Positions 35,075 to 64,000 of a DNA stretch of 64,000 nt are shown one piece after another. The stretch covers positions 1 through 64,000 of the forward strand of contig JBCNUU010000002.1 of the NCBI GenBank assembly GCA_039630545.1. Direction: 5' to 3'. Position numbers and translations under genes: made by a program. The notes beneath the pieces are model-generated. The model was not told the origin of the DNA. It did not search any database and saw only the letters and a list, made by a program, of their open reading frames with translations. Position 1 is the stretch's first letter, and every line of letters starts with the position of its first letter. The stretch is from Endomicrobiia bacterium. GTDB lineage: Bacteria; Elusimicrobiota; Endomicrobiia; DTEH01.

Positions 35075-35956
35075 ATGAGGAAATATAAATATATACAAGA
35101 AGATGTGCTCAAACAGATTAGTGCTCTAACCTTAGAGATAAAAGAAAAAACAAATGGTATTTTTTCTGGTAAACATACAAGCTGGCTTATAGGAAGGTCT
35201 TTAGATTTTTTACAGCATAGAGAATATTATGCAGGTGATGATATAAAACTTATAGATTGGAAAATATATGGTCGTAGAGATAAGTTTTTTATTAAACAAT
35301 TCCACCAGGAAACTAATTTAGAAGTGAATTTTTTTATTGATTGTTCTTTATCAATGTGGTATCCTGAATACAGTTTAACAAAGTATGAATATGCAAGTTT
35401 TCTTTGTTCTTATCTTAGTTATATACTATTAAATCAAAACGATAAAGTAGGCATTATCAGATTTGATCATGAAATTAAAGATATATTGTCTAGTTCATCT
35501 ACAGAAGGATTTTATTATAAAATATTAGAATTTTTAGAAAATGAAATAAAAGGTTCACACTCTGATTTCAAAAATCTTGTTAAAAAAATTTTAAACCAAT
35601 TTAAGAAAAAAAGTTTGATTATTTTAATTTCTGATTTAATCTCTGAAGATGAAACCATAACAGTCAAATTGCTAAAAAATGTGGCTTCTTATGGAATAAA
35701 CTTAATGATATTACATACTGTTTGTTTAGAAGAAAAAGAATTAGATTTAAGTTATGAAAATGTTAAATTTAAAGATATAGAAAATGAAGATATAGAAATA
35801 AAGACAAATATTGTAGAAATAAAAGATCTTTATAAAATGAAATTTTCCAATTTAATAAACTATTATAATAGGGAGCTAAATGGAGAAAACATAAAATATA
35901 AAACAATATATACTTTTTTGCCAGTTTTAGAAAATTTGAAATTTATTTTAGAATAA
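35075..35956 (+). CDS. DUF58 domain protein (VWA, MoxR-associated)
   Basis: 'GKH.S..G.SLDF.QHREY..GDDIKLIDWK..R.DK..IKQF', MIDAS 'DCSLSM', 'LISDL'. Confidence 0.9.
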   Translation: MRKYKYIQEDVLKQISALTLEIKEKTNGIFSGKHTSWLIGRSLDFLQHREYYAGDDIKLIDWKIYGRRDKFFIKQFHQETNLEVNFFIDCSLSMWYPEYSLTKYEYASFLCSYLSYILLNQNDKVGIIRFDHEIKDILSSSSTEGFYYKILEFLENEIKGSHSDFKNLVKKILNQFKKKSLIILISDLISEDETITVKLLKNVASYGINLMILHTVCLEEKELDLSYENVKFKDIENEDIEIKTNIVEIKDLYKMKFSNLINYYNRELNGENIKYKTIYTFLPVLENLKFILE

Positions 35957-35959
35957 ATT

Positions 35960-37972: not shown

Positions 37973-38709
37973 TGAGAAGTATTTATCTTATTGTAACAAT
38001 TATATTTTTTTTGTTTTTTTACATTTTTCCGGCTGATAAATTTATATTTGCCTATCTTAAATATCCTGGTAACTGGGATCCATATCCTAATATACATAAT
38101 GATATTTTAGAAATTCTTGAGCTTACTACGAGCGTAAATGTGGAAAAACAAAGAATTGTGTTGGATCTTATGTCAGACAGGTTGAAATATGAGATTTCAA
38201 AAGTCCCTTTTGTTATATTAGTTGGCAATGATGAAGTAGTTATTCCTTTAAAGAACATAAAAGTTTTAAGAGACTATGCAGTAAGTGGGGGAACTATTTT
38301 TATAGAAGATGTTTCTGAGTTATATAACAGCAGATTTGATGAATCTATAAGAAAAATTTTAAAATTGATGTTTCCCGAATATAAGCTTAAAAAAACAGAT
38401 AAAGATTATGTATTAATGAAATCTTTTTATTTAATCCGTAAAGTTACAGGAAGAATAGCAATGTATAATTATTTAGAATACATTGAACATGAAAACCGCC
38501 CAATTATTATTTATTCAAGAAACAATATGATTTCATGTTGGGCACGAGATAGGTTAGGAAACTACATATATAACTGTATACCTGATGGAGAACAACAAAG
38601 GTTTAACTCTCAAAAGCTTTTTCTTAACATAATAATGTATTCTTTATGTGGCACATATAAAATGGATAAAGTTCATCAACCATATATTGAAGAAAGGCTA
38701 AAAAGGTGA
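37972..38709 (+). CDS. DUF4159 domain protein
   Basis: 'GNWDP', 'LRDYAVSGGTIFIED', 'SFYL', 'NIIMYSLCGTYKMD.VH'. Confidence 0.8.
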   Translation: MRSIYLIVTIIFFLFFYIFPADKFIFAYLKYPGNWDPYPNIHNDILEILELTTSVNVEKQRIVLDLMSDRLKYEISKVPFVILVGNDEVVIPLKNIKVLRDYAVSGGTIFIEDVSELYNSRFDESIRKILKLMFPEYKLKKTDKDYVLMKSFYLIRKVTGRIAMYNYLEYIEHENRPIIIYSRNNMISCWARDRLGNYIYNCIPDGEQQRFNSQKLFLNIIMYSLCGTYKMDKVHQPYIEERLKR

Positions 38710-40799: not shown

Positions 40800-42847
40800 T
40801 GAAATTTAAAGTATTGATATGGTTTATATTGATATCAGTATATTTAATACTTTTGTATAATGTCTCTCCTTATGTTAACAGTGGAGATAGTGGAGAACTT
40901 ATTACCGTTGCTTGTACGTTGGGTGTAGCCCACAGTCCTGGCTATCCTTTATACTCCTTACTTGGTAAAATTTTTTGTTACCTTATTCCATATGGCAATT
41001 ATGCTTATAGAATGAATGTAATGAATGTATTACTTTCTATTTTTACTTTGATTTCGTTTATTTCTTTTCTTTTCCGATTATACAATGATAACTTCAGAAT
41101 AATTTTTGGAATAGGTGTGTTTTTATCTTTTTTATTTTCAGAGTCATACTTTAGAAATACAGTTCAAGCAGAAGTTTTTATCTTAAATATTTTTTTAGCT
41201 AACTTGCTAATGATTTGGTCGTATAAGGAAATAAAAAAACCATCTCTTAAAAATTGGTACTTTTTATCCTTCTTAACGGGTTTATCACTGGGAAATCATC
41301 ATACTATAGTATTTTTTGTTCCTTCTTTGATTTTTATTTTTTTTATAAATAAAATCAACATAAAAAAGATACCTCTTTTATTTTTATTTTTTATTTTAGG
41401 CTTCAGTATTTATTCAGTTTTACCTTTAAGAGCTGCTAAGGAGCCTTACTTTAACTGGGGAAATCCTAGAAAATTAAAAAACTTATACAGAGTTATCACA
41501 AGAAAAGACTACGGAACTTTCCAGCTTACTGTGGAAAAACCTTTAAAGTATGATTTTAATAACCTTTCCTTTCAATGTTACAGATTTTTTAAAAAAGTGA
41601 ATAACGATTTAGGTATATTCTTAATTATTTTGATATTTTTAAGTTTTATTAAATTATATTTTTCATGTAAGATTTTATTTTTTTATTTGATTTCAGGATA
41701 TTTACTTTCAGGCATTGGATTTCTAATTTTATCTAATCTGCCTTCATCTGAACTATACGATGGAATTCTTGAAAGGTTTTATATACTTCCAAACTTTATA
41801 GGTATTTCAACCGTAATTTTTGCCGCTACCTATATAGATAAAAAATTTTTAAAAATTATGTTTCTTATGGTTTTATTTAGCATAATTAAAAATTTAACAA
41901 TAAATTTCCACAGATGTAATTATAGAAATTACTATCTTAACTACGATTACGGATTAAATATCATGAAAACTTTATTAAAAAATAGTTTTTTATTAATGGA
42001 TGGGGGTGACGATACTTTTTATACTTTAGGATACATGCAAGGAGTTGAAAAAAGAAGAACTGATGTAAAATTGCATGACAGAGGAGGTTTAGTCTTTAAA
42101 AGCATATATGGAGAGGATTTCAGAAGTTTAACAAAAGAAGAAAAAGAAAAAAGAAGAATAGAAATAGAAAAAATTTTGGTTAAAAAGTTTCCTGTATTTT
42201 ATTCAACATTTAATAAAAACATCTTACCAGAAACAAAATTAAGATATGCTGGAGTAGTTTATGTGGTAGAGACAAATTTCTTACCTTCTTATTATAAAAA
42301 GAGTTTTTTTAGAGAGATTTATTCCTATAGAACCATATATGACAAATATTATGACTATAGAAGTAAAGCTCTTGTTCCCATATATCTTTTTATGGAAGCA
42401 ACAAATGAAGAAGATGTTTACAAAAAAGTTAAACTTTTAAAATTATGTTATTTTTTATGGAAAGAGGTTGATTGGTTAAAAAACAACATAAAAATAGAAC
42501 TTCATAATGAAGCTTATAAAATATTGAATGATGGAGATATAGCTTTAGCAAAAGATATATATGAATTTATTTTAAGAATTGACCCAAATGATACAAACGC
42601 TTTGTTAAATTTAGGAGTAATATTTGAAAAACTTAACCAATTTGATCTGGCAAAAACTTATTATTATAAGGTTATAGAGATGAATCCTTATAATCCAACC
42701 GCATATTATAATTTAGGAGTTATTTTCTGGAAAGAATCAAACTGGGATAAAGTAATTGAGTATTTTAATAAAGTTTTAAAAATTCAACCAGATAATCAAC
42801 AAATAAGAAATTATATTGAATATGCAATTAAAAAAAGAAAATCTTAA
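40799..42847 (+). CDS. DUF2723 (TMEM260-like GT-C glycosyltransferase) with TPR, copy 1
   Basis: 'SGDSGEL..LGVAHSPGYPLY', 'AEVF', 'GNHHT', 'LPLRA..NWGNP', many TMs, C-terminal TPRs. Confidence 0.85.
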   Translation: MKFKVLIWFILISVYLILLYNVSPYVNSGDSGELITVACTLGVAHSPGYPLYSLLGKIFCYLIPYGNYAYRMNVMNVLLSIFTLISFISFLFRLYNDNFRIIFGIGVFLSFLFSESYFRNTVQAEVFILNIFLANLLMIWSYKEIKKPSLKNWYFLSFLTGLSLGNHHTIVFFVPSLIFIFFINKINIKKIPLLFLFFILGFSIYSVLPLRAAKEPYFNWGNPRKLKNLYRVITRKDYGTFQLTVEKPLKYDFNNLSFQCYRFFKKVNNDLGIFLIILIFLSFIKLYFSCKILFFYLISGYLLSGIGFLILSNLPSSELYDGILERFYILPNFIGISTVIFAATYIDKKFLKIMFLMVLFSIIKNLTINFHRCNYRNYYLNYDYGLNIMKTLLKNSFLLMDGGDDTFYTLGYMQGVEKRRTDVKLHDRGGLVFKSIYGEDFRSLTKEEKEKRRIEIEKILVKKFPVFYSTFNKNILPETKLRYAGVVYVVETNFLPSYYKKSFFREIYSYRTIYDKYYDYRSKALVPIYLFMEATNEEDVYKKVKLLKLCYFLWKEVDWLKNNIKIELHNEAYKILNDGDIALAKDIYEFILRIDPNDTNALLNLGVIFEKLNQFDLAKTYYYKVIEMNPYNPTAYYNLGVIFWKESNWDKVIEYFNKVLKIQPDNQQIRNYIEYAIKKRKS

Positions 42848-44867
42848 TATAATATCATTAATCTTTTTAACTGGATTTTCTTTTATCTCTTCAATATATT
42901 TTCTACCTTCAACTATCACAGATGGTGATGTAGCTGAATTAGTAGGAGCGGCTTCGTCTTTAGGTATTGCACATGCTCCAGGATATCCTTTATTTTGCAT
43001 TCTCTATAAATGTTTGATTACACTTTTACCTTTTGGAGATTATGCTTATAAAGCTGCTGTTGTTTCTTTATTTATTTATATGTTTTCTGGTCTATTGATA
43101 TTTAAGTTGACTTTCATAAAGAAAAATTTTTTGTTTGGTTTTTTTATTTTTACTTTTTATTTGTCTCAACCAATTTTGTTAAAACAATCTACAATAGCAG
43201 AAGTATTTTCTCTTCATAATTTATTAGTAGTTTTAATTTTTTATTTCATATTCAGTGATGACATTTCATTACATAGAAAATTTTTAATTACAGGATTTAT
43301 TTTAGGTTTAGGTTCTGGCTGTCAACATATAATCATTTTTATAATACCAGCTATAATTTTTTACTTTTTAAGTAAATCTCCATCTAATATACTTACATTT
43401 AAAAACATATCTTTATTTTTGGTATTTTTTCTTTTAGGTTTTTCTATAAATCTTTATATTCCAATAAGATCTTCAGTAGAACCTCTATATGATTGGGAAG
43501 ATCCACAAACCTTAGATAGATTTTTGTATTTATTTCTAAGAAAAAGATATGGAAGTTTTAGTTTAGCACAAGGTGGAAAGTTACATTTTAGTCTTGAAAG
43601 TTTTTATCATGGTTTTATGTTATTTTTTTACATTTTTGGTGTGAAAAATTTAATTTTTTTAGTTTCTTCTATTTTAATTTTTTTATTAAAAATGAAAAAA
43701 ATTGAACTAATAAATTCAATTACTGCTCTGATAGCATTTTTATTCTCTGGCCCTATATTTACATCTATTACCGGATTAAAAAGTATATCCGAATCAAATA
43801 TTTATATATTAGAAAGGCTAATAGTTTCGTCTGTAATCTCCTTTGTGTTTCTTATAATTTTTACATTTTCTGTTTTTAAAGACTCAAAAATACTTTTATA
43901 CGGGCTAATGATTCTAAACTTACTTTTTTATTTCAGAAATTTAAATTCTATATCTTTAAGAAATAATTATTTTCTGTATGATTATACAATGAACATCTTT
44001 AGAAACACACCTCCTGATAGTATACTTCTTTCAGATCGTGCAGACGAAACTGAGTTTGCTTTAGCATATTTTCATAGAATACATAAAAAACGACAAGATA
44101 TTGATTTTATAGATTGCAATGCTTCTGTAAGTAGAAGTATATATGGGAAAGAATATTATAAAATATGGGGGCCACCACGTTTAAAAATACGTTCGGAATT
44201 CGAAACAAAGCTGATAAAAAATTCAAGAAAAAAAGTTCTTTATAATACCCTGCTTCCTGCCCAGACTTCTACAAAAAAATATAAGTTCGCTTTGTTGCAT
44301 ACAACTTTTGAAACTAACTATGAAATACCTTTTGATATCTTTGTAATAAGAGAAAAAAGTGTATTAAATATTCGTGAGTTTTGGCTATACAACGCTTATT
44401 TGAGTTTACTTTTTAATTACTATTTTGAAAAAGCAATTAAAGATAAAAGACACTTTAAAAAATTTGAGATTTTATGTTACCAATTATATTTTTTAAATAA
44501 AGAACCTAAATACTTAACTTATATTCCATATTTCTATATGTCAACTAATGAATTAAAAAAAGCAAAAAATAAGTATGTAGAAATTCTTGATAATTATAAA
44601 CTTTCTGCTGACATTCTCTCAGAAATACTTAGCAATTTAGGAGTAATATATGAACGTGAAAATAACTTTCAAAAAGCAGAGGAATATTTTTTAAAAGCTT
44701 TAAGTGTAAATCCTAATTTTTACCAACCCTATTATAATTTAGGCAGTTTATACTGGAAAATGAAAAATTTTAAAAAAGCTTTAGAATTTTTTGAAAAATA
44801 TTTACTACTTCAGCCGCAAAACAAAGAAGTAAAAAAATATGTTGAATATTTAAAATCAAAATTATGA
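42816..44867 (+). CDS. DUF2723 (TMEM260-like) with TPR, copy 2
   Basis: 'DGDVAEL..LGIAHAPGYPLF', 'AEVF', 'YIPIRS..DWEDP', TPRs; start may be 42822. Confidence 0.85.
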   Translation: MNMQLKKENLNIISLIFLTGFSFISSIYFLPSTITDGDVAELVGAASSLGIAHAPGYPLFCILYKCLITLLPFGDYAYKAAVVSLFIYMFSGLLIFKLTFIKKNFLFGFFIFTFYLSQPILLKQSTIAEVFSLHNLLVVLIFYFIFSDDISLHRKFLITGFILGLGSGCQHIIIFIIPAIIFYFLSKSPSNILTFKNISLFLVFFLLGFSINLYIPIRSSVEPLYDWEDPQTLDRFLYLFLRKRYGSFSLAQGGKLHFSLESFYHGFMLFFYIFGVKNLIFLVSSILIFLLKMKKIELINSITALIAFLFSGPIFTSITGLKSISESNIYILERLIVSSVISFVFLIIFTFSVFKDSKILLYGLMILNLLFYFRNLNSISLRNNYFLYDYTMNIFRNTPPDSILLSDRADETEFALAYFHRIHKKRQDIDFIDCNASVSRSIYGKEYYKIWGPPRLKIRSEFETKLIKNSRKKVLYNTLLPAQTSTKKYKFALLHTTFETNYEIPFDIFVIREKSVLNIREFWLYNAYLSLLFNYYFEKAIKDKRHFKKFEILCYQLYFLNKEPKYLTYIPYFYMSTNELKKAKNKYVEILDNYKLSADILSEILSNLGVIYERENNFQKAEEYFLKALSVNPNFYQPYYNLGSLYWKMKNFKKALEFFEKYLLLQPQNKEVKKYVEYLKSKL

Positions 44868-47017
44868 TATATTTAGTTTTATTTTTAAACATATTTTTAA
44901 TATATCTTTACTGCAGTTTTCCAACAATTGCAGCTTATCGTGACTCAGGAGAAATGGCAACAGTAAGTTACATCTTAGGAATACCACATCCACCTGGTTA
45001 TCCACTTTATACTATTTTAAGTTACTTGCTAAGTAGAATGTTAAAATTTGGGAATTTTGCTTATAGAGTTAATGTTCTATCTGGAATTTTTTCAGCTTTA
45101 ACAGGAATAATTTTGTTTCATTTGTTTAATAAGTTTACGTTTTACATACTTCCTAAGAAAGAGAATGAAAAGTTTTTCTGGTTATTTTTTAATTATATGA
45201 CTATTTTATGTTTCAGCTTATCTTATCTCCAATGGTACTTATCAGTAGTTTCTGAAATGTATACTCTTAATACCTTATTTGCTACTTTTATGATATTTTT
45301 GACTTTTTTATATTATACTATAAAAAACAATAAAGTTATTTACTTATTATTTTTTATATTTGGTTTGGGTATTACAAATAGATTAGATTTAATACTATAC
45401 TCTCCTTTGATATTATTTATATTGATTGATCATTCAAAGTTTAGAATTGATAAAAAAGTTTTAATGTTATTGACTTTATTTTTATTAGGATTAAGTTGTT
45501 ATATGTATCTACCTATAAGATCATCTAATGAACCACTAATAGATTGGAACAATCCTCAGAAACTTGATAGATTCTGGGCTTCCTTAACAAGGAAAACGCA
45601 TGGTTCTACATTAGATCTTATATCATCTGGATATAAACCATTTGAAAATTTTAAAGATGGTATGATATTTTATTTTAGAAGAACTTTAGAGAATTTAGGA
45701 TTGATAGGAATTATTCCAGTAGTGTTAGGAATTAACTTAAAATCACATTTTGGAATATCTTTGTTTTTAAGTTGGTTTTTAAGCTCTGTCTATTTTATCT
45801 ACAAGGCTAATATGCCTCCAAATCCTCATGCCTTAGCTATCCTTGAAGCTCATTTTTTGTTACCTAATTTGATAGTGTGGGTGTGGTTTATTTTAGGAAT
45901 TACTTATGTTTATAAAAAAATCAAACTGAAATATTTTATCTTTGTTGCAGTATCTTTTATTTTAGTATTTAATATTTTTAAAAATCATAAAAAATTAAAC
46001 AAAAGAAATAACTTCTATGCTTATGATTACACTGTTAATATATTAAGAACTTTACCAAATAAAAGCATAGTAGTAGTTAAAGAAGATGTCCAGTTATTTT
46101 CTTTATGGTATAGTAAATTTGTAGAATCAAAAAGAAAAGATGTATATGTTATAGCTGCAGGACTTGCGGGTTCAAGTTGGTATCAAGAAATGACTAAAAG
46201 GTTCTTTGAAGATGAGATTTTTTTACTTCCACTAACTACTTCTGATAACTGGAGCAATTTTATTGATAAAAATCTCAAACTTGGTTATAAAATTTTTGTG
46301 ACCTATGATGTAGAACTTCCTGAAATTAAAAATTTTATTCTTAAACCATATGGTTTGGTATTGAGAGTCTTACCGTTTCAAGAAAATTTATTGGAAAATT
46401 TTTTCACTGATTTTTTCTTTGAATTCTTATACATATTTAGAGGAGATTACACATATAATTTAGAATTTGATTTTTTTTCTTCAGATTTAGTTGAAGATTA
46501 CAGTAAATCTCTGCTTAATAGTGGACATTGGCTTACAAAATATAAACTATATAATTCTAAAAAAGTTGAAAATTTTTATAAACATTCTATTTTTATGAAT
46601 TCTGTTTATCCTTACGGTTATTTTGAACTTGGATATCTTTATTATTTAAAAAATTTGCTTAAGGATTCTTACATATGGTATAAAATAGCGGCTAAAAAGT
46701 TTGAAGAATATATAGAATTAGCCTATAAATATAAAGCCTTTAAAGAAGTTATAGATGAAATAAAATCTAACACTGCTAATTGTTACTTACATTTAGGCGT
46801 TGTAGCAGAAAAACTCAATAATTTAGAAACCTCAATAGAATTTTACAATAGAGCCTTATATTTCAACCCCTATCTGGCAGATGCTTATTATAATTTAGCT
46901 GTGGTTTACTGGAAAAAACTAGATTGGCAAAAGGTTCGTTATTACTTACAGAAAACCTTAATTATTAATCCATATCATAGTCAGGCTAAATATTTCATTG
47001 ATAAACTACCAAAATGA
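44864..47017 (+). CDS. DUF2723 (TMEM260-like) with TPR, copy 3
   Basis: 'YRDSGEM..LGIPHPPGYPLY', 'SEMY', 'YLPIRS..DWNNP', TPRs. Confidence 0.85.
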   Translation: MIYLVLFLNIFLIYLYCSFPTIAAYRDSGEMATVSYILGIPHPPGYPLYTILSYLLSRMLKFGNFAYRVNVLSGIFSALTGIILFHLFNKFTFYILPKKENEKFFWLFFNYMTILCFSLSYLQWYLSVVSEMYTLNTLFATFMIFLTFLYYTIKNNKVIYLLFFIFGLGITNRLDLILYSPLILFILIDHSKFRIDKKVLMLLTLFLLGLSCYMYLPIRSSNEPLIDWNNPQKLDRFWASLTRKTHGSTLDLISSGYKPFENFKDGMIFYFRRTLENLGLIGIIPVVLGINLKSHFGISLFLSWFLSSVYFIYKANMPPNPHALAILEAHFLLPNLIVWVWFILGITYVYKKIKLKYFIFVAVSFILVFNIFKNHKKLNKRNNFYAYDYTVNILRTLPNKSIVVVKEDVQLFSLWYSKFVESKRKDVYVIAAGLAGSSWYQEMTKRFFEDEIFLLPLTTSDNWSNFIDKNLKLGYKIFVTYDVELPEIKNFILKPYGLVLRVLPFQENLLENFFTDFFFEFLYIFRGDYTYNLEFDFFSSDLVEDYSKSLLNSGHWLTKYKLYNSKKVENFYKHSIFMNSVYPYGYFELGYLYYLKNLLKDSYIWYKIAAKKFEEYIELAYKYKAFKEVIDEIKSNTANCYLHLGVVAEKLNNLETSIEFYNRALYFNPYLADAYYNLAVVYWKKLDWQKVRYYLQKTLIINPYHSQAKYFIDKLPK

Positions 47018-54295: not shown

Positions 54296-54324
54296 TTGAC
54301 ATTTTTTAAATTTATATATATAAT
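54296..54324 (+). promoter_or_regulatory. Perfect sigma70 promoter at the head of the CTD-PorV-FliF/G-coiled-coil operon
   Basis: TTGACA(54296-54301)-N17-TATAAT(54319-54324). Confidence 0.85.
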
Positions 54325-54364
54325 AACTATAGAAAAGCAAAGCTACGGATATTTAAAAACAAAA

Positions 54365-54808
54365 ATGAAAAAACATTATATTTATCGTTTTTTTTATTCT
54401 AAAAATATAATTTACATTTTTTTTACTTTAAATTTTTGTATATTAATGTTACTACACTTTTCTTATTCTGAAAGTTCTATTTTTGATAAAACAATTGTAA
54501 ATTATACAACTTTTTTACACGAAGGACTTTTAGAAGAACCAAATATTGTTTTTACCAATTTCCCTAATCCCTTTAATAGGTATACTTATATCTACATAAA
54601 ATTTCCTTATGTTAGCAGCTGTGTATTAAGTATCTATGATTTGTTAGGCAACAAAGTGAAAGAATTTATTTTAACAGAAAATTCTGAATATCTTATAAAA
54701 TGGAATGCAACAAATAATAATTCACAAAAAATTTCAACAGGTGGATATATCTGTGTGCTGATGTATAAAAACAGAAAGCTAATAAGAAAAATAGGATATA
54801 CAAGATGA
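54365..54808 (+). CDS. Small exported protein made essentially of a T9SS-like/FlgD-Ig sorting domain
   Basis: The ORF-track TTG at 54296 is the -35 box; in-frame ATG 54365 is used. Hydrophobic leader, then 'NFPNPFN..IYDLLGNKVK..WNATNNN..STGGYIC..RKIG'. Confidence 0.75.
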   Translation: MKKHYIYRFFYSKNIIYIFFTLNFCILMLLHFSYSESSIFDKTIVNYTTFLHEGLLEEPNIVFTNFPNPFNRYTYIYIKFPYVSSCVLSIYDLLGNKVKEFILTENSEYLIKWNATNNNSQKISTGGYICVLMYKNRKLIRKIGYTR

Positions 54809-56379
54809 CGAAAATTATTAAAAGAATCATTTTAATATTATTAGGAGCGAATTTTCAATATATATATTCTACTTATACTGGAGGACAGCCTGGAGAATTT
54901 TTGAATTTTGGTGCTTCTGCAAAAGCAATGGCAATTAAAAGTTTCTTTTCTATTTCTAATGATGCTTCGGCTGGATATTACAATCCCGCTGGTCTTGTTC
55001 AATGCGATAAAAAAGAAATCACTGCCTTGCATACAGAACTTTTTCCAAATACTCAAACTATTTACGATTACATAGGTTTCGTATATCCAACAATAAAATA
55101 TGGTGTGTTCTCTTTAAGTCTGGTGCAGTTGCTTTCTTTGAAATTCGAAAAAATTATAGTAGAATTTGATCCTTCTGGTTCAGGTGATATAATAAATATT
55201 CAACACCAAGGATATTTTGATGATAGACAAATAGGAGTGATATTAAGTTACGGAAAAGAAGTTGTAGAACATATAAATGTGGGAACATCTTTAAAATATA
55301 TCACAAGAAAACTGGATATTCATTCAGACACAATGGTAAGTCTTGATGTTTCTGTCTTAGTAATTGGAATAAATTCAAAATTACCTTTTTTAAACTTTGC
55401 AGCTGGTATTAAAAATCTAATCTCAGCATCAATGAATACAGAAGATAAACTCCCATTAATTTTCAAAATAGGTGGTTCTTATAGATTTTTAAGAGAAAAA
55501 TTAATTGTGGGAGTGGATTTAGAAAAAAATGTTAACTCAGAATTCAAATGGATGGTTGGGATAGATTACTGGATATTAACTTTTTTAGCTTTAAGATTAG
55601 GTTTTGAAGGGTTAAGTTATTTAAAAGAAACCACAGCTGGTTTGGGGTTCAAATATCGTGACTACTCTGTAGATTACTCATTTGGTTACCATGAGTTAGG
55701 TTTTTCTCATAGAATCTCTGCTAATATGAAATGGGGAAAATCTGTAAAATTTGACAAGGAAGAAACGATAAAACGCTTTGTAAATGAAGCTATAGCAAGA
55801 TATACCACCGGTCAGTTCTTAGAGGCAACTAAAAGTTTACAATTAGCTTATCAGATAGATCCTAATAAAAAAGAAATTAAAAAAATGCTTGATAATTTAC
55901 TTATGATTACAGCATACATTCAAAGAGCCACAGAAGATACAGAAGAACATCAGGGAATAAGAAAAGCTGTTCAAGCTTTAATGGAAGGTGATTTAACTAC
56001 TACGGTGAATTCTTTAAGATATGCTTATTACAAAAATCCTGCAAATAAAACTCTTTTACAATTACTAAATCGTATGGAACAACTAGCAGGTATGCCTTTA
56101 ACAGAACCTTATAAAGAAGAAATTGCAGGCTGGACCATAATAGATAAAAAAATATATGAAGCAAGGGAAGATGTCTTAAATGGAAGATATACTGATGCAA
56201 TAAGAAAGTGTCAAGAAATACTTAATTTAGAACCTAAAAATACAACTGCTATGGAGATTATGGGTTCAGCTTTCTTTATGATGAATGAAATTGAAAAAGC
56301 AAAAGCTATATGGAAAAAGGTATTAGAACTTGATCCTACAAATAAAGTAGTACAGCAATTTTTAGAAGAGTTAGAATAA
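54805..56379 (+). CDS. PorV/PorQ-family outer-membrane barrel with C-terminal TPR domain
   Basis: 'GEFLNFGASAKAMA..NDASAGYYNPAGL', 'LPLIFKIG', 'LALRLG', 'VDYSF..LGFSHRIS', followed by TPR helices. Confidence 0.82.
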   Translation: MTKIIKRIILILLGANFQYIYSTYTGGQPGEFLNFGASAKAMAIKSFFSISNDASAGYYNPAGLVQCDKKEITALHTELFPNTQTIYDYIGFVYPTIKYGVFSLSLVQLLSLKFEKIIVEFDPSGSGDIINIQHQGYFDDRQIGVILSYGKEVVEHINVGTSLKYITRKLDIHSDTMVSLDVSVLVIGINSKLPFLNFAAGIKNLISASMNTEDKLPLIFKIGGSYRFLREKLIVGVDLEKNVNSEFKWMVGIDYWILTFLALRLGFEGLSYLKETTAGLGFKYRDYSVDYSFGYHELGFSHRISANMKWGKSVKFDKEETIKRFVNEAIARYTTGQFLEATKSLQLAYQIDPNKKEIKKMLDNLLMITAYIQRATEDTEEHQGIRKAVQALMEGDLTTTVNSLRYAYYKNPANKTLLQLLNRMEQLAGMPLTEPYKEEIAGWTIIDKKIYEAREDVLNGRYTDAIRKCQEILNLEPKNTTAMEIMGSAFFMMNEIEKAKAIWKKVLELDPTNKVVQQFLEELE

Positions 56380-56391
56380 AGGGTATAAAAT

Positions 56392-58287
56392 ATGAAATTA
56401 TTGAAAAAACTCTTTAAATTTTATATAAAATTTCATACAAAAATGGGCAAATTTAAATTTTCAATTCCTTTTCTACTCATCATACTTTCTTTTGATTTAT
56501 TCAACCAAACAATAGCTACTTTGCCTTCTGAACAGCAGATTTCACCTATTATGCTAATTGAATATGAAACAAAACTGGAACAACAAAAAACAGAATACGT
56601 ACAAAAAAACATACTTGATAAAATTTTCGGTCCTAATAAATCCACAGTGATGATAGATATAACATTAGGTTTAAGAACCACTACAACTAAACAACAAGCT
56701 TCTGAGAAAAAAATTGATGCAAAACGAAAACTTGGTGAAACAGAATATTTGTTACCTGGAATTCCTAAACCAGGATCTATTACTGAGTCTGCTGTTCCAG
56801 CTGAAGCTAAGGGTGAAGCTTCTGGAACAGAAGTAGTAGGAGTTAAAACTGAAATAGTAATTGAAAGACAAAATGTAACTGTAATATATGATGAAAAAAT
56901 AAAAGATGAAAAGGTAGAAATAGCAAAAGAGTCAATTATTTCTACTCTTGGCATAAAAAGACCTCAAGATATAGTATTTAAAAAAGCAAAATTCAAAACA
57001 GATCTTTTAAATAAATTCTTAGAAAACATTGTTTTACCTAAGTATTTTATTCCTTTATTGATTACTCTGCTTCTGCTTGCATTTTTGTTTGGTCCGATAG
57101 CTAATTTTTTAAAAAATTATTTAAGAATGTTAAAAGAACGAGCACCTACTGAAATTTCAATAGACTCAAAACTTGCCCGTGAAGGAGAAACTCCTGAAGG
57201 AGAACTTACAGCAGAAAAAGCAACAAGTGGAATCGGTTTATCTGGAGGGCAGTTTGAATCACAGTTTACAGGAAAAGAAAAAGAAAAGGAAAAAGAGGAA
57301 GAAAAGTATATCCCATTTAGCTACATTAATGATGATAATATAAAAAGACTAACATATCTTATAGCAAAAGAAAAACCAGAAGATATAGCAATTGTTCTGA
57401 GTTATTTAAAACCCGAATATGTTAAACAAATTATAGAAAGTTTTAAACCACACCTTCAGGCCAAAGTGGCTTTAGCTTTAGCTCAAGCTAGAGAAATTCC
57501 ACAAGAAGAAGTTATAAGAATGGACAATTATGTAAAAGAAAGAATAGATTTTCTAGTTGGAGGCTTACATCATCTTATTGAACTTCTACAGAAGGTAGAC
57601 AAAACTACAAGAAACAATATCCTTGAATATTTAAAAAACGAAAAACCAGATATCTACAATAAAGTGAGACCTCAAATATTTTTGTTTGAAGATATTTACG
57701 AAATCCCAGATGTTACCTTGCAGGTTATCATAAGAGAACTAAAACCTGAAAATATAGCACGTGCTTTAAGAAATGCGCCACAAAACTTAATAGAGAAGTT
57801 TTTTAAAAATATGTCAGAAGGAGCACAGGCTTTGGTAAAAGAAGAAATGGAATATGGCAGACCTATGACTAAAGAACAGATTGAAGAAGAACAAAATAAA
57901 ATATTAGAAGTTATAAGAAAATTAGAACAAGAAGGAAAAGTATATTTAAAAGAAAAAGAAAAAACTTTTTTAATTGATGCTTCAGAAGTAATGGTATTAA
58001 CACCCAGAAAAATAGAAGACTCACCTGGATATGAGTATTATATTACAGCAACAGAATTATATCAACAAGGTAATTATGAAGAAGCCTTTAATTATTTCTC
58101 ATATGCTACAGAATTAGATCCTCAATTATATGAAGCATATCAATATATGGGAAACATCCTATACGAGTCAGGCAGATACAATGAAGCACTTTCCTATTAT
58201 AAAAAAGCCTTGGAATTAAATCCTCAAGATCAAGAACTTGCTAAATGGATAGAAGAGATAGAAAAAAATATATCTTTAACAATTTAA
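56392..58287 (+). CDS. FliF(RBM3)-like periplasmic domain, TM, FliG middle/C-terminal domains and TPR in one fusion protein
   Basis: FliG motifs 'EKPEDIAIVLSYL' (cf. EHPQ), 'GG', 'IFLFEDI' (cf. MFxF), 'KFFKNMSEGAQALVKEEME', 'EEEQNKILEVIRKLEQEG'. FliF-like 'ILDKIFGPNKSTVMIDITL..LPGIP..IERQNVTVIYD..IISTLGI..DIVF..F' precedes the TM. Confidence 0.75.
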   Translation: MKLLKKLFKFYIKFHTKMGKFKFSIPFLLIILSFDLFNQTIATLPSEQQISPIMLIEYETKLEQQKTEYVQKNILDKIFGPNKSTVMIDITLGLRTTTTKQQASEKKIDAKRKLGETEYLLPGIPKPGSITESAVPAEAKGEASGTEVVGVKTEIVIERQNVTVIYDEKIKDEKVEIAKESIISTLGIKRPQDIVFKKAKFKTDLLNKFLENIVLPKYFIPLLITLLLLAFLFGPIANFLKNYLRMLKERAPTEISIDSKLAREGETPEGELTAEKATSGIGLSGGQFESQFTGKEKEKEKEEEKYIPFSYINDDNIKRLTYLIAKEKPEDIAIVLSYLKPEYVKQIIESFKPHLQAKVALALAQAREIPQEEVIRMDNYVKERIDFLVGGLHHLIELLQKVDKTTRNNILEYLKNEKPDIYNKVRPQIFLFEDIYEIPDVTLQVIIRELKPENIARALRNAPQNLIEKFFKNMSEGAQALVKEEMEYGRPMTKEQIEEEQNKILEVIRKLEQEGKVYLKEKEKTFLIDASEVMVLTPRKIEDSPGYEYYITATELYQQGNYEEAFNYFSYATELDPQLYEAYQYMGNILYESGRYNEALSYYKKALELNPQDQELAKWIEEIEKNISLTI

Positions 58288-58305: not shown

Positions 58306-61300
58306 ATGAGTATATTTGACAAAATTAAAATTAAATTTTCTCAACAAGATGTCCGAAAGAATGAAATCAGTAATAACACTGATTTAGCTAAATCTTCCTG
58401 CGTTTCTGCTACTTCACAAAAAGAATCACAAGAAGATTTATCTATGCTTAAAGAAAATCTATTAGCGGAATTCCATTATTTAGAACAAAAAATACAACAA
58501 GAAAGGGAAGAATTGCTTTCAAGGTTAAATTCAAAGGAAGAAGAACTTGTTTCTTTAGAAATGAAATTATCTTCATTAGAATATAAAATAAATTTTAATA
58601 AAATAGATTTTGGGAAAGAGATTGAAAAAATTAAAAATCAAATTAGTGCTGAATTAGAAAAACTTAATGAAGAATATAATATTGAAATAACTAAATGGCA
58701 AAAAAAATTAGAAAACAAATCCAATGAGATTGAGCAGCTAAGAAACAAAATCATATTAGAAGAAACACAAAATAAAATGCTTACAGAACAAAAAAAGCAA
58801 GAATGCAAACAAGAAATTGAATTTCTTAATAACAGGGTAGAAAATTTGAAAAAACAATTAGAAGAAGAAAAAGAAAAATTTTTAAAAAGGATAAACGAAA
58901 AAGATGAAGAAATATTGAAATTGAAATCGCTGATAGAGTTAAAAGAAAAACAACTAAAAATAGAAGAAGAAAAATATTTATTGTTAGCTAAAGATCTTAA
59001 TGAAAAAAGAATTACTCAAATCTCTGAAATGCAGAGAAAATTTGATGAAAAAATTGAAAATTATAAAAAACTTTATAAAGCAAAAGAAGAAGAATATTTC
59101 ACGATAAAAAACATTCTAGAGCAGAAATATCAAGAATGGCAGCAACAACAGGAAGAAATTGTAAGTAATCTACAAAATAAAAAACGATTATATGAAGAAA
59201 AAATAAATGAATTATCTCAAGAAGTAGAAAAAATAAAAAAAGAATATGAAACAATAATTTTACAAAAAGAAGAGGAAATTAAAAAATTAAAAGTAGAGAT
59301 AATGTTAAAAGAAACACAACAAAATGCACTAATAGAGCAAAAAAAGAAAAGTCTAATAGATGAAGAACAAAAGATTCATCAACAGATTTGTGAACTAGAA
59401 CAAAAGTTTATAAAAGAATATGAAAATTACAACAAACTAATTAAAGATAAAGATCAGGAAATAATACAACTGCAAATTTTATATCAACAAAGAACTTCGC
59501 AGCTAAAAGAAGAATGGGACAAAAAAATAAAGAAACTTCAACAGGAAAAAGAAAACTTAGAAAAAGAAATAATAGATTTAACAAATTTACTAGATACTAC
59601 AAAAAATAAGTTTTTTAAAATAATTGAGGATAAAAAAGATTACATCAGAACACTTAAAAAACAATATTATGAAAAAACAGAAATTTTCAAAAAACAATTT
59701 GAAGAATTAATAGAAAAAGCACTCAAAGAAAAACAACATCTTGAAGAGGAATATAAAATAAAAGAAAAAGAATTTACAACCAGAAAAAATGAATTAGAAG
59801 CAATTTTAAAGAAAAAAGAAGAAGAGATACTTTATCTTAATTCTAAAATTGAAGCTGAAATTGAAAATCATCAAAAGAAATTGCTCTTACTTCAAAAGCA
59901 ATTTGAATATGAAAACAGACCACTTTATATTCGAATTTCTAAACTAAAAGAAGAAATAAAAAACAAAGAGGCTAAGTTAAAAGCATTCATTGAGAAAAAG
60001 GATAAAGAAATAGAACAAATTGTAAAAGATTATGAGAATTTTAAAAATGAAGCTGAAAAAAGACATTTAGAAAAAATAAATGAGATAGAAAATCGCAAAA
60101 AACAATATGAAACAAAGATATTCAATTTACAAAATACATTATTAGAATACGAAACTCAATTTAAAGAAAAAATAGCTCAGTTAGAAGAAAAACTTCAACA
60201 AGCCACTAAAGAATTATCTAATATAGAAGAAAATTTTGAAAAAGAAAAACAAAAAATCATTGAAGCTAATAAAGAAGAAATTAAAAAAATAGAAACAGAA
60301 ATAGCAAGTTTGCAAAGCAAAATAAATGATTTATCAGAGTATCAAACTAAAATTGAGCAAGAAAAAAATACAGAGTTAAATGAATGGAAAAACAAATTAG
60401 AAAGTTTAAAACAACTAAAAGGAAAAGAATTAGAAGATCTTCAAAAAAATGCAGAAAAAGAGTATTTAAAATATGAACAGGAGTTAAAAAATATAGAAGA
60501 AAAGATTTCTTATAAGAAAAAAGAATACGATAAAATTTTATATGAAAAACAAAAGAATTTAGAAACTTTAATAAGCAATTTAGAACAAAAAAAATTAACT
60601 TATGAACAACAGTTATTGGATTTAAAGAAGCATTGGGAAAACAATCTGACACCTTTAATAAATAAGAAAAAAGAATTACAAAATGAGGTTATTTTATTAG
60701 AGACAAATAGTAAAAATTTAATAGAGAATTATATAAAAGAAATAAATGACTTAAAATTAGCATATGAAGAACAACAGAAAACTTACCAAATTCAAGAGAA
60801 TCAAAAAAAAGAAGAAATTAAAAAAATAAAACAAGAGCTTTTTGAAAAAATTAAAAATAAGCAGCAAGAAATAGAAGAAATCACACAATTCTATACTCAA
60901 AAATTATCAGAACTCGAAAACAACAAAAACAATATAATATTCCAGAATAAAAAAATTTTGGAAAATTTAGAATTAGAAAAGGAAAAAGTAAATAATGAAT
61001 TTGAAAATAAAAAAAGAGAACTACAAAAAGAAATAGAAAATTTAGAAAATAAAATAGTAGAAATAAATCATACTATCAAAATTCAAACGGATGAAAAAGA
61101 AAAAGAAAAAGAATCTTTAATTATACAACTGAAAGAATTACAAAAAGAAAAAGAAGCAAAACTTTTTAAACTGCAGAAAACTTCAGAACTCATATCAGAT
61201 CGCTTAGAAAGGAGAATCAAATTTTATACTGAAACATTAAATTCTTTAAGAAATGAATATGAGAAGTTAATTTCTCAAAAACAACAAGAATTAGAATTTG

Positions 61301-63117
61301 TTTTATCAGAATGGAAAGATAAAGAATCAACAATTATAAACGAAATAAATGAACTGGTAGAAAAGAAAACCAAAGAAATAGAAAATTTACAAATTCAAAA
61401 AGAACAATTATTAGAAAAAATTTCTAAAATAGAAAAAGAAGGAAAAGAAACTATAGAAAACATTCAAAATGAAATTTCAAAACTTAAATCTGAGATATCT
61501 TCTAAAAAAGAGTTATTTGAACAAGAATGGAGCTTAAAACAACAAGAATTTGAAGAATTAAAATCATCTTTTTATTCTGAAATTTCAAATCTTAAATCAA
61601 AAATTAACTTAGAAGCAGATGAATATAAACTTAAACTGACAGAAAAAAATCAAGCTATATCTACCTTAAAACAAGAATACGAAGGAAAATATAACCAACT
61701 TTTAAATGAATATAACAATAAAAAGAAAGAATTTGCTGTAAAAATTGAAAAATTAACTTCTCAAATAAATTCGTTAGAAGAAGAACTCTCATTAAAACAA
61801 CAAGAATATAATAGATTAAAAAGAGATAAAGAAGAAGAACTCAAGGAGTTAATATCTAAATTTTCAGATTTAGAACTAACAATTAAATTAGAAGAAGAAA
61901 AAAGGACAAAACAATTAGCCGAACAGAAAGAAAAATTTGAAAAAGAAATAGAATATTATAAATCTCAGCTCGAAAAACAAAGGAAAGAATATTTGGAAAA
62001 ACTTAACCTCCTCTTTGTTGAAGAACAAAGAATAACACAACAATATAATGAATTGGAAAAACAACTTTCTCAACAACTCTTAGAAGAAGAAAAAAATTAT
62101 GAAATAAAGAAAGAAAATTTACAAAAAGAAATTAAATTACTTCAAGATAAAATAAAAAATATAGAGTCTGAAAATGAAAGTTTAATAAAAGAATTGCAAA
62201 AAGAAATAGACAATATTAAAACAAAAATTGCTTTAAAAGAAATAGAAATAGCATCTGCAAAAAATAAATTAAATTTTGAACTTAAAAAATTTGTTTCAGA
62301 TTATGAACAAAAAAAAGATAAAATAATAAAAGAATTCAACAAGGAAAATATGGAAATTTTACAAAGAATTAAAAACAAAGAAGATGAAATAAATACATTA
62401 CAAACAAGATGTTCTTTAAGAAATCAAGCAATATTAGAAGAAAAAAGAAGAAGAGAAGAATTTATGGAAAGAGAAATCAAAAAAATAATGGATGAATTAA
62501 AAGAAATCGAAACAAATTATAAATCAAAAGAAAACTATTACAAAAATCGTATTCAACATTATAAAGAAAATATTGAACTTTTGAAACAACAACTTCAAAT
62601 TTTGCTACAAAACTGGGAAGACGAAAAAAATAAAATGTTGTCAAAGAAAGAATCACATAAAAAACTATTAAATGAAGAGATAAATATGTTAAAACAAAAA
62701 TTAAATGAGTATAAATATATCATTAATGCTTTAGTTGAAAAAATAGAGTCAAAACTAAAATTAGAAAATGAACTTTTAGAAATAAAAGATTCAGAACTTA
62801 TAAAAGAAAAAGAAATTACACAATATGTGATGGAAAAGATCTTCTCAACCGTACCAGGAAAAAAATTTAAAGATAAAATTGATAAAACTCAGCTATATAA
62901 AGCAATAGATCTATACAATGCACAACAATATGATATAGCATTGAAAGAATTTTTGAAGTTGCTAGCAGATGATGAAAATAACGAAATTGTCAATCAATAC
63001 ATTAGTTTATGTTATTATAATCTAAATGATATCCAAAATGCAAAAAAATATGCTTTAAAAGTGTTAGAAATTAACCCAGAAAATAATGCAGTTAAAAATT
63101 GGCTTAAAGAAATATAA
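58306..63117 (+). CDS. Giant coiled-coil protein of about 24 tandem 61-aa periods with a C-terminal TPR
   Basis: E/K/Q/L/I-rich, almost no Pro/Gly, no signal peptide or Walker A; motif recurs every 183 nt; TPR 'AIDLYNAQQY..ALKVLEINPEN'; RBS AGGAGG. Confidence 0.85.
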   Translation: MSIFDKIKIKFSQQDVRKNEISNNTDLAKSSCVSATSQKESQEDLSMLKENLLAEFHYLEQKIQQEREELLSRLNSKEEELVSLEMKLSSLEYKINFNKIDFGKEIEKIKNQISAELEKLNEEYNIEITKWQKKLENKSNEIEQLRNKIILEETQNKMLTEQKKQECKQEIEFLNNRVENLKKQLEEEKEKFLKRINEKDEEILKLKSLIELKEKQLKIEEEKYLLLAKDLNEKRITQISEMQRKFDEKIENYKKLYKAKEEEYFTIKNILEQKYQEWQQQQEEIVSNLQNKKRLYEEKINELSQEVEKIKKEYETIILQKEEEIKKLKVEIMLKETQQNALIEQKKKSLIDEEQKIHQQICELEQKFIKEYENYNKLIKDKDQEIIQLQILYQQRTSQLKEEWDKKIKKLQQEKENLEKEIIDLTNLLDTTKNKFFKIIEDKKDYIRTLKKQYYEKTEIFKKQFEELIEKALKEKQHLEEEYKIKEKEFTTRKNELEAILKKKEEEILYLNSKIEAEIENHQKKLLLLQKQFEYENRPLYIRISKLKEEIKNKEAKLKAFIEKKDKEIEQIVKDYENFKNEAEKRHLEKINEIENRKKQYETKIFNLQNTLLEYETQFKEKIAQLEEKLQQATKELSNIEENFEKEKQKIIEANKEEIKKIETEIASLQSKINDLSEYQTKIEQEKNTELNEWKNKLESLKQLKGKELEDLQKNAEKEYLKYEQELKNIEEKISYKKKEYDKILYEKQKNLETLISNLEQKKLTYEQQLLDLKKHWENNLTPLINKKKELQNEVILLETNSKNLIENYIKEINDLKLAYEEQQKTYQIQENQKKEEIKKIKQELFEKIKNKQQEIEEITQFYTQKLSELENNKNNIIFQNKKILENLELEKEKVNNEFENKKRELQKEIENLENKIVEINHTIKIQTDEKEKEKESLIIQLKELQKEKEAKLFKLQKTSELISDRLERRIKFYTETLNSLRNEYEKLISQKQQELEFVLSEWKDKESTIINEINELVEKKTKEIENLQIQKEQLLEKISKIEKEGKETIENIQNEISKLKSEISSKKELFEQEWSLKQQEFEELKSSFYSEISNLKSKINLEADEYKLKLTEKNQAISTLKQEYEGKYNQLLNEYNNKKKEFAVKIEKLTSQINSLEEELSLKQQEYNRLKRDKEEELKELISKFSDLELTIKLEEEKRTKQLAEQKEKFEKEIEYYKSQLEKQRKEYLEKLNLLFVEEQRITQQYNELEKQLSQQLLEEEKNYEIKKENLQKEIKLLQDKIKNIESENESLIKELQKEIDNIKTKIALKEIEIASAKNKLNFELKKFVSDYEQKKDKIIKEFNKENMEILQRIKNKEDEINTLQTRCSLRNQAILEEKRRREEFMEREIKKIMDELKEIETNYKSKENYYKNRIQHYKENIELLKQQLQILLQNWEDEKNKMLSKKESHKKLLNEEINMLKQKLNEYKYIINALVEKIESKLKLENELLEIKDSELIKEKEITQYVMEKIFSTVPGKKFKDKIDKTQLYKAIDLYNAQQYDIALKEFLKLLADDENNEIVNQYISLCYYNLNDIQNAKKYALKVLEINPENNAVKNWLKEI
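58534..62745 (+). repeat. 183-nt (61-aa) degenerate tandem repeat within the CDS
   Basis: Anchor Lys of [IL]xxK[DE]xE[IL] at 58534, 58717, 58900, 59083, 59266, 59449, 59632, 59815 and 59998, and still in phase at 60364, 60547, 61096, 61279, 61645, 61828 and 62377. Confidence 0.85.
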
Positions 63118-63136: not shown

Positions 63137-64000
63137 ATGGATGAAATAAATAAACCACAAATACCCAAACCACCTCTTCCTTCTAATAAACCATCGGGGC
63201 CTAAACTGCCTGTTGGGAACGATAAACAAGTTAATTTACCATTTAAAAAAACAACTCAACCGCAAATTAGTACTCCTTCTAGGAGTATATCGAGTAGTTC
63301 TTCAACTACTCCACCACAATTTTCTTCATCTATAGAACAAAGATTATGGGAAGCAGAACAAGCAAAAAGACAAATGGAAATTCAACTGCAAGAATTGCAA
63401 AGAATGTTACTTGAAGAACGGGAAAAACTTATAATGCAAACAATGAAAACAAAAGAAGAAGAAGCACTCGCTGCAAAAGTTGAAGAGAGTATAAAAGACA
63501 TACAGGAAAGATTAAGAAGAGAAAAAAGAGAACAAGAACTGAAAGAAGAAAAAGAAAAACTCTTAAAACAGATAAAAGAACTTGAAGAACGACTGGCAAA
63601 AGAAAGAGAAACGTGGATAGAAACTTTAAAGACCCAGATGTCTCAAAGAGATCTCCAAGACCAGCAAATTGAACAGCAGTTTATTGCTAAAATAAGAGAT
63701 ATAGAAGCACGTTGGCAGGAAGAAAAAACTAAATTTCAGTTAATTCTTAAAAATAAAGATGAAGAAATAAATAGAATTAAAAATGAATATAAAGTTTTGG
63801 AAGAAAAACTTAAAGCAGATTTTGAAAAACAAATTGCAGAATATAAATTCCAGTATAAGAATTTTGAGAATGAAATAAAACATTTAAAAGAGGAAATCAC
63901 TGAAAAAGAAAAAGAGATTCTTGCATTGAAATCTACAATTGCCACAATGCAATCTGAGTCAAACATATCTAAGGATAAGTTTAATTATGAAATTAAAAAG
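63137..64000 (+). CDS. 3'-truncated coiled-coil protein with a Pro/Ser-rich N-terminal head (absent from the ORF track)
   Basis: GGGGG RBS-like sequence, ATG 63137: MDEINKPQIPKPPLPSNKPSGPK...IEQRLWEAEQAKRQMEIQLQELQ...; the frame stays open to the window end. Confidence 0.85.
   Translation, partial: MDEINKPQIPKPPLPSNKPSGPKLPVGNDKQVNLPFKKTTQPQISTPSRSISSSSSTTPPQFSSSIEQRLWEAEQAKRQMEIQLQELQRMLLEEREKLIMQTMKTKEEEALAAKVEESIKDIQERLRREKREQELKEEKEKLLKQIKELEERLAKERETWIETLKTQMSQRDLQDQQIEQQFIAKIRDIEARWQEEKTKFQLILKNKDEEINRIKNEYKVLEEKLKADFEKQIAEYKFQYKNFENEIKHLKEEITEKEKEILALKSTIATMQSESNISKDKFNYEIKK

Follow-up and report, generated by a model that had tools for sequence, protein, structure and literature searches.

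The closest described counterpart of the protein reported here belongs to the core of the flagellar motor, in which a periplasmic ring domain of FliF leads through a transmembrane (TM) segment to cytoplasmic FliG, which faces the MotAB stator. The FliF MS-ring contains approximately 33–34 subunits and, to our knowledge, the flagellar rotor-stator pair is known only within the flagellum. A second point of reference is provided by engineered FliF-FliG fusions of Salmonella and Vibrio, which assemble rings according to the parts of three reports that describe them (PMC6079021, PMC10941966, PMC11481574). In the present work, a stretch of 64,000 nucleotides from an Endomicrobiia bacterium of the phylum Elusimicrobiota was analysed (assembly GCA_039630545.1, contig JBCNUU010000002.1, positions 1–64,000 of the forward strand; hereafter the window). 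An ATG-started open reading frame (ORF) of 631 amino acids (aa), located at 56392..58287 on the plus strand and beginning 13 nt past the stop codon of the preceding gene, is, by sequence comparison and structure modelling, a fusion in one chain of the ring-building end of FliF, of the ring-building motif 3 (RBM3)/collar type, and the torque-receiving FliG_M-FliG_C domains. We consider it probable that this protein is the rotor subunit of a non-flagellar envelope machine driven by MotAB. No natural FliF-FliG fusion and no Elusimicrobiota MotAB-FliG system was found described in the literature outside subscription journals; the fusion would probably act as the rotor of an apparently undescribed ion-driven envelope machine.

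The fusion shares several traits with the flagellar core. The RBM3/collar fold is common to both, with Z-scores of 10.3–12.0 to Salmonella and Vibrio FliF, and the order of periplasmic ring domain, TM and cytoplasmic FliG is the same. FliG_M and FliG_C are likewise accompanied by a Gly-Gly linker and an MFxF-type motif, an acidic torque-helix position faces the basic MotA R90 position, and the associated stator is also of Mot type, with P173, P222, MotB D32, a plug and an OmpA domain. Unlike the flagellar core, the fusion is a single polypeptide with an added C-terminal tetratricopeptide repeat (TPR) module, and it comes without RBM1/RBM2, FliG_N, FliM/FliN, export apparatus, rod, hook or filament; R281 and R297 of FliG are lost, the EHPQR motif is degenerate, and the gene partners encode a PorV-like outer-membrane barrel and giant coiled-coil proteins. 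The protein falls outside FliF for want of RBM1/2 (PF01514) and of a FliG-binding tail, and outside flagellar FliG for want of FliG_N, because it scores below the TIGR00207 cut-off and because of its altered EHPQR motif. The engineered fusions resemble it in the covalent joining of FliF to FliG, and one of them (PDB 8z4d) matches both the N-terminal model and the FliG part. These constructs (8z4d/8z4g) are, however, full-length laboratory proteins (945 residues in 8z4d) from flagellated species, whereas the present fusion is natural, has 631 residues, combines only RBM3 with FliG_MC and comes from a flagellum-less phylum.

By computed topology, the RBM3/collar-type domain is periplasmic and is connected through one TM and a flexible linker of ~50 residues to cytoplasmic FliG_M-FliG_C. 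The predicted parts of the protein are listed below with the evidence for each (pLDDT, predicted local distance difference test):

56392..56520, plus strand: basic N-terminus and hydrophobic leader, residues 1–43, signal peptide or weak first TM (translation, hydropathy)
56545..56988, plus strand: periplasmic RBM3-type domain, residues 52–199 (AlphaFold2 models, structure matches, hhalign)
57037..57111, plus strand: TM helix, residues ~216–240, with basic residues then following on the cytoplasmic side (hydropathy; model helix 216–250)
57148..57294, plus strand: disordered E/K/G-rich cytoplasmic linker, residues 253–301 (pLDDT <50; without Pfam domain)
57340..57552, plus strand: FliG_M and helix MC, residues 317–387 (PF14841, 41.8 bits; T. 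maritima FliG alignment)
57565..57945, plus strand: FliG_C torque domain, residues 392–518 (PF01706, 102.2 bits; PDB FliG matches to 7.5e-39)
58030..58281, plus strand: C-terminal TPR module, residues 547–630, five helices, cytoplasmic by topology (TPR_2, 53.8 bits; TPR_1, 49 bits)

The original prediction, made from the letters of the window, had described this ORF as a single-chain FliF(RBM3)-TM-FliG(M,C)-TPR chimera, and the ORF and all the motifs it quoted were recovered in the translation ('IFG' at 78–80, 'LPGIP' at 121–125, 'IERQNVTVIYD' at 157–167, 'LGI' at 186–188 and F196). Its single TM at residues 218–240 corresponds to one strong TM at ~213–240 in a Kyte-Doolittle scan, and its FliG-M (nt 57370) and FliG-C (57676–57940) agree with the Pfam positions 319–385 and 413–518, both scoring above the respective cut-offs of 25 and 23.3 bits. 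The proposed C-terminal TPR coincides with two Pfam TPR matches at ~550–617. The proposed absence of RBM1/RBM2 was borne out by PF01514, which had no match in the protein (E<=1) or in the genome. The same applies to FliG-N, whose sole match (PF14842, E 3.4e-4, residues 329–376) is weak, falls within FliG_M and does not represent an additional domain. The hydrophobic leader is present as an N-terminal hydrophobic stretch weaker than the TM in the hydropathy scan, where it stays below the TM threshold, and its helix (24–37) has low pLDDT in the full-length model. Of the two membrane segments flanking the periplasmic domain, the C-terminal one is clear; the N-terminal stretch is short, and possibly a signal peptide that is cleaved off. 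In the family alignment, the TM residues F231, F233, G234 and P235 are nearly invariant. The linker occupies the place of the FliF C-terminal tail and FliG_N and runs straight into FliG_M, and the TPR helices are modelled with pLDDT >90.

A Pfam scan gave no match over residues 1–310, and the N-terminal domain was characterised through its predicted fold. Two alignments were used: A2, comprising window residues 44–246 (periplasmic segment and TM) with 76 relatives from genome loci, and the deeper A1, which served for the full-length model. In that model the periplasmic segment of the original prediction, at residues ~54–202, follows the order alpha-beta-[insert]-beta-alpha-beta (helix 52–78, strand 84–101, low-confidence 102–147, strand 148–167, helix 172–186, strand 194–199), with pLDDT of 90–98 in the structured parts. 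AlphaFold2 run on A2 returned an alpha helix, a long beta strand, a disordered insert, a second long beta strand, an alpha helix, a beta strand and the TM helix, at a pLDDT of 72. The insert holds the invariant P122 and P125 of an 'LPG(V/I)PxP' motif. A Foldseek search against the PDB (E<=1e-3) yielded 19 matches, consisting of 18 FliF RBM3/S-ring chains and SpoIIIAG. With a second structural aligner, the best 15 matches were all FliF RBM3/S-ring (94–137 residues aligned, at the Z-scores given above), with root-mean-square deviations of 2.0–2.9 Å over 94–105 residues in 13 of the 15 and of 8.9 and 5.6 Å in the other two, and the match spans Salmonella FliF ~228–438. PrgK, SpoIIIAG and EscJ ranked after FliF (Z 7.6–8.7; SpoIIIAG 8.5). 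SpoIIIAG and the SctJ/PrgK/EscJ proteins share the alpha-beta-beta-alpha-beta motif, and SpoIIIAG also has an insert between two strands, but their Z-scores are lower, and they have neither a FliG fusion nor a MotAB link.

A comparison of A2 with E. coli FliF by hhalign aligned columns 8–169 to FliF 223–432 (probability 78.8%, E 1.7e-5). Since the whole-protein profile searched against the PDB was dominated by TPR designs, the N-terminal and FliG parts were compared separately; the A2 profile then gave seven matches to PDB sequences at E<=10, the top five being SpoIIIAG (best, E 0.082) and four FliF, all aligned to the RBM3 start. Profile comparison, one of the checks proposed with the original prediction, gave a divided outcome: FliG_M and FliG_C stood above their Pfam cut-offs, and YscJ_FliF_C (PF08345) was unmatched. 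A precomputed PF08345 annotation is carried by 8 of 120 listed homologues. The RBM3 with beta-collar insert is supported by fold and profile, not by Pfam sequence score, and the N-terminal ring-building-motif fold on which the prediction had been staked was found by AlphaFold2, Foldseek, the second aligner and hhalign. A four-copy oligomer prediction of the periplasmic domain (A2 residues 1–160) gave a score of 0.01 and a mark of 0.42, which is neutral on ring formation.

The FliG part was matched by T. maritima FliG-MC structures at 7.5e-39, and the flagellar FliG equivalog TIGR00207 scored 129.4 bits (cut-off 226.7), covering model positions 112–329 of 338. Residues were mapped on the E. coli FliG sequence and counted over 81 long-form sequences. 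The position of D288 is E in 81/81 and that of D289 is E in 36/81. R281 is never R (G in 73/81), R297 is never R (T in 62/81), and K264 is R, Q or K in 70/81. In the FliM-binding EHPQR motif, whose positions were checked on the E. coli sequence, E is found in 78/81 and P in 77/81; H, Q and R are lost, R160 being E in 69/81. The window protein carries E484/E485 at D288/D289, G at R281, T at R297, EKPE in place of EHPQ, and Ala at the R160 equivalent. In the Gly-Gly linker G390 is invariant and G391 is conserved in at least 90%; an F-x-F-E-D element (F432, D434) is also conserved and is kept as I-F-L-F-E-D in the window protein. Parts of one report pair MotA R90 with FliG D288-D289 and MotA E98 with FliG R281 (PMC12505986). 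As described below for MotA, one of these classical charge pairs (D288/R90) is kept on both sides in the present family, and the other (R281/E98) is relaxed on both.

The link between the fusion and a MotAB stator emerged from gene order across genomes. A one-genome-per-species scan found a relative encoded in 216 genomes, of which 80 loci were kept for the locus counts; the label is Elusimicrobia for nearly all of them and 'Ignavibacteria' for one metagenome-assembled genome (MAG). In 43 of the 80 long-form loci, the fusion is followed on its own strand by a MotA/MotB pair, from which it is separated by 0–2 coiled-coil-rich ORFs. Among the remaining 37, 17 have less than 3 kb of downstream sequence and 20 have very large ORFs there, as in the window. 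A reduced form occurs in four loci without a PorV gene in at least 3.8 kb upstream, where the fusion is followed directly by MotAB, and the same direct adjacency is seen in a fifth locus whose upstream edge is truncated. Within the own genome, the nearest relative of every one of the 43 MotA proteins is an orphan MotA, with 49–61% identity over the aligned part; for full-length ORFs the identity is 50–57%, versus 29–38% to the other own MotA. This orphan pair is located as follows:

contig C34, L119:10032-11543, minus strand: orphan MotA/MotB pair, between a leuA-like gene and a gene for a 254-aa protein of no known family

The C34 pair matches PF01618 MotA_ExbB (109.4 bits), MotB_plug (46.2 bits) and OmpA (77.7 bits), and keeps MotA R90, E98, P173 and P222 and MotB D32 (E. 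coli numbering). Over 41 C34-type MotA orthologues and 38 MotB, R90 is K or R in 41/41, E98 is Q in 32/41 and E in 9/41, P173 is kept in 41/41, P222 in 40/41, and MotB D32 in 37/38. Orthology with the syntenic pairs elsewhere suggests that the C34 MotAB is the cognate stator of the window module, and that in this lineage the stator genes have become separated from the rotor gene. The 254-aa protein had no BLAST homologue in loci L001-L080 at 1e-6. Beyond its gene lie genes for an ECF (extracytoplasmic function) sigma factor and a CBM48 anti-sigma-like protein.

The family has spread widely through Elusimicrobiota and co-occurs there with Mot-type MotA. A word-indexed protein search returned 376 relatives, most of 580–670 aa, the named ones coming from Elusimicrobiota/Endomicrobia MAGs, and, of 1.84 billion cluster representatives searched exhaustively with the A2 profile, 554 matched at E<=1e-3. 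In 401 sampled genomes of the phylum, the fusion, searched with a shorter paralogue from the own genome (described below), was found in 172, often in 2–4 copies, and Mot-type MotA (E<=1e-30) in 174. Both occur in 164 genomes, the fusion only in 8, MotA only in 10 (three of them with FlhA) and neither in 219; this co-occurrence is to be read as a pattern, not a statistic, because related genomes are non-independent. Two large families are near-devoid of the fusion (1/89 and 2/118 genomes). These families, in which many genomes measure 1.1–2.1 Mb, are also almost without Mot-type MotA, and the near-absence of both suggests a joint loss. The original prediction had inferred a natural minimal rotor. 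That proposal gains support from the MotAB synteny, from the co-occurrence across the phylum and from the missing flagellar export and switch genes, and we refer to the protein as a putative rotor. A figure legend gives flagellar genes as absent in Elusimicrobia (PMC7031533).

If the fusion is a rotor, RBM3 would bring many copies together in a membrane ring bearing a beta-collar. The covalent tie provided by TM and linker would replace the contact between the FliF tail and FliG_N, both of which may be unnecessary because the ring domain is covalently tied to the FliG domains. The peptidoglycan-anchored MotAB, with its plug and its peptidoglycan-binding OmpA domain, would be the stator, and ion flow through MotA5B2 units would turn the ring by pushing FliG_C, in whose torque helix the acidic partner position of MotA R90 is retained. 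The C-terminal TPR could stand in for the absent FliM/FliN and provide a docking site for the giant coiled-coil proteins of the cytoplasm whose genes lie downstream. The collar would face the periplasmic TPR of the PorV-like barrel encoded upstream, so that work could be passed to the outer membrane; the steady pairing with this barrel points to an outer-membrane output, for which the handling of surface proteins is a candidate. If true, this would be a flagellar torque unit working outside flagella, in a phylum almost without them, and would represent a motor re-used after flagellum loss or else a living model of the motor that preceded the flagellum. It would also define the minimal parts of a rotor and, being small and tractable, lend itself to structural and single-molecule studies.

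Several observations weigh against a rotating machine. The ring, its rotation and the contacts with MotA, the PorV-like protein and the coiled-coil proteins would follow from homology and gene order, and the sufficiency of RBM3 for a ring without RBM1/2 is a presumption for this protein. Of the four classical charges of FliG, R281 and R297 have gone, and no more than half of the EHPQR motif, which binds FliM, is retained, so the interface may differ from the flagellar one. At the sequence level, the A2 profile matches to the PDB are each non-significant (E 0.08–0.54) and the window protein has no YscJ_FliF_C match at E<=1. The cognate MotAB is encoded here on another contig and not in the operon, the link being one of orthology, and the co-occurrence is phylogenetically non-independent, with two large families supplying most of the absences. 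The main rival explanation is a static membrane platform, that is, a non-rotating ring or cluster whose FliG part recruits MotAB-like, peptidoglycan-anchored force generators in a Tol-Pal/TonB-like manner. Such a platform would fit the partial conservation of the torque-helix charges, with G at R281 and T at R297, the lack of a rod, export gate or C-ring for a turning ring to serve, and the TPR and coiled-coil partners, which are typical scaffold parts. We nevertheless judge it unlikely, given that the FliG_C fold and the hinge elements (Gly-Gly and MFxF-type) are kept, that the acidic position is invariant and its basic MotA counterpart is retained in every orthologue, that rings are the only known setting of the RBM3/collar domain, and that the stator, with its plug and OmpA domain, belongs to the Mot and not to the Exb/Tol type. 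The putative rotor remains the reading that we favour.

Two further explanations invoke the flagellum itself. The protein could be a decaying, functionless relic of a lost flagellum, in line with a phylum almost without flagellar genes (FlhA in 9/401 sampled genomes) and with a protein from which one half of FliF and one third of FliG are missing. Decay is, however, contradicted by a reading frame intact in all 80 loci, a mean column identity of 37% with invariant residues in every domain, the presence of 2–4 paralogues in many genomes and the conserved synteny (the PorV-TPR gene in 70/80 loci, MotAB in 43/80). The ratio of nonsynonymous to synonymous substitution rates (dN/dS) against six close relatives is 0.07–0.16, and 0.03–0.06 in the FliG part, values that are rough because dS is saturated. 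The fusion family is, by these sequence comparisons, under purifying selection, and a relic was rejected on this ground and on that of synteny as very improbable. Alternatively, a true but highly divergent flagellum or injectisome might be present with its other genes undetected, since the own genome is a draft (82 contigs, 1.60 Mb, 95.5% complete) and profile searches can miss divergent genes. Yet FHIPEP, FliMN_C and YscJ_FliF were unmatched in this genome in searches that were positive in four flagellated control genomes, and 167 of the 172 fusion-bearing sampled genomes are without FlhA. With no export or switch genes detected, this explanation was likewise rejected, and we give it hardly any credence.

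The genes surrounding the fusion form a module with the following members:

54296..54808, plus strand: small secreted protein, 170-aa ORF, consisting mostly of a C-terminal sorting domain of the type IX secretion system (T9SS) type (Por_Secre_tail PF18962, TIGR04183)
54805..56379, plus strand: PorV/PorQ-family barrel (~31–308) with a C-terminal TPR region (~320–524), predicted to be periplasmic (NF033709)
58306..63117, plus strand: 1603-aa coiled-coil protein, no signal peptide, C-terminal TPR (ORF; weak TPR_2 at 1565–1593)
63137..64000, continuing to contig position 65569, plus strand: second coiled-coil protein, 810 aa (ORF)

The small protein scores 24.4 bits with PF18962 (cut-off 27) and 23.0 bits with TIGR04183 (cut-off 23), a later Met at residue 24 begins a signal-peptide-like stretch, and a BLAST-detectable homologue is found at the same position in 24/80 loci. 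The PorV-like neighbour matches the PorV_fam model NF033709 over residues 31–308 with 95.7 bits (cut-off 90), followed by TPR_2/TPR_19 matches. Its gene lies directly upstream of the fusion in the 70 loci mentioned above, and five of the ten others are cut at a contig edge. At the position of the 1603-aa protein, related loci carry large ORFs rich in E/K/Q/L/I/N, and no Pfam domain was found in those sampled. M16 peptidase genes after the gene of the 810-aa protein mark the end of the module. The flanking ORFs scanned, from a handful of loci and this genome in a search that was not systematic, contained no PilZ, GGDEF or EAL domain that would point to c-di-GMP control. The PorV-TPR, fusion and 1603-aa proteins share a common end (window 56200–56376, 58180–58284 and 63040–63114), namely TPR, then L-E/K-L/I-N/D-P, a few residues, and W/F-L/I-x-E-I/L. 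This TPR-plus-tail ending may be a common docking module.

The sorting domain and the PorV-family barrel invite comparison with the T9SS and gliding machinery of Bacteroidota (GldLM/PorLM, PorV and cargo with a C-terminal sorting domain, CTD), where an ion-driven 5:2-type motor operates with PorV-family barrels and CTD proteins. Comparable parts exist here; unlike in the T9SS, the motor parts are homologues of FliF, FliG and MotAB, not GldL/GldM. In the own genome, the T9SS type A sorting domain is matched 24 times and the PorV family 15 times, with at least eight adjacent pairs of a CTD protein followed by a PorV-like barrel (for example window 54560/54895 and contig C12 71467/71784 and 177843/178187). 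Furthermore, a 1742-aa ORF (contig C12:74846-~80070), ~9 kb downstream of the module and ~11 kb beyond the window end, gives three colinear weak matches, of 45, 41.5 and 19.9 bits (cut-off 200), to the model of the SprA translocon. GldL and GldM (TIGR03513, TIGR03517) were unmatched in this genome, the control genomes being equally silent, and no paper was found that places a T9SS in Elusimicrobiota. The CTD and PorV-family matches and the weak SprA-like ORF allow a bolder reading, in which the fusion motor would serve a T9SS-like surface-protein system. In its most specific form, the collar would engage the TPR of the PorV-like barrel within a MotAB-turned trans-envelope machine doing the job of the unrelated GldLM motor, powering the export, attachment or movement of CTD-tagged surface proteins; we advance this form tentatively, as possible but rather doubtful. 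Elsewhere in the genome (contig C6, L120:206-14102), a further neighbourhood of motor and barrel genes combines ExbB and two ExbD proteins with a 945-aa TPR protein, PorV-family barrels and PKD/CTD-bearing proteins.

The shorter paralogue of the fusion in the own genome, a 469-aa protein without TPR (32% identity over residues 64–507, E 1e-52), belongs to an operon of its own:

contig C2, L087:7524-11231, minus strand: RBM3/FliG_MC paralogue, MotA, 176-aa OmpA-family protein, MotB

The paralogue gene is directly upstream of MotA, an adjacency also seen in 22 of 30 loci from other genomes. Its YscJ_FliF_C score is borderline, at 22.2 bits (cut-off 23.8), or 24.9 with neighbouring stretches. The MotA of this operon has K at R90 and Q at E98, and its MotB has Asn at the E. 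coli channel Asp32. Further upstream in the window itself, positions 35075–47017 encode a Bat-type operon (DUF58, BatA/VWA, DUF4159, GATase1-like), followed by three tandem paralogues of a TMEM260-like protein O-mannosyltransferase, each with C-terminal TPRs.

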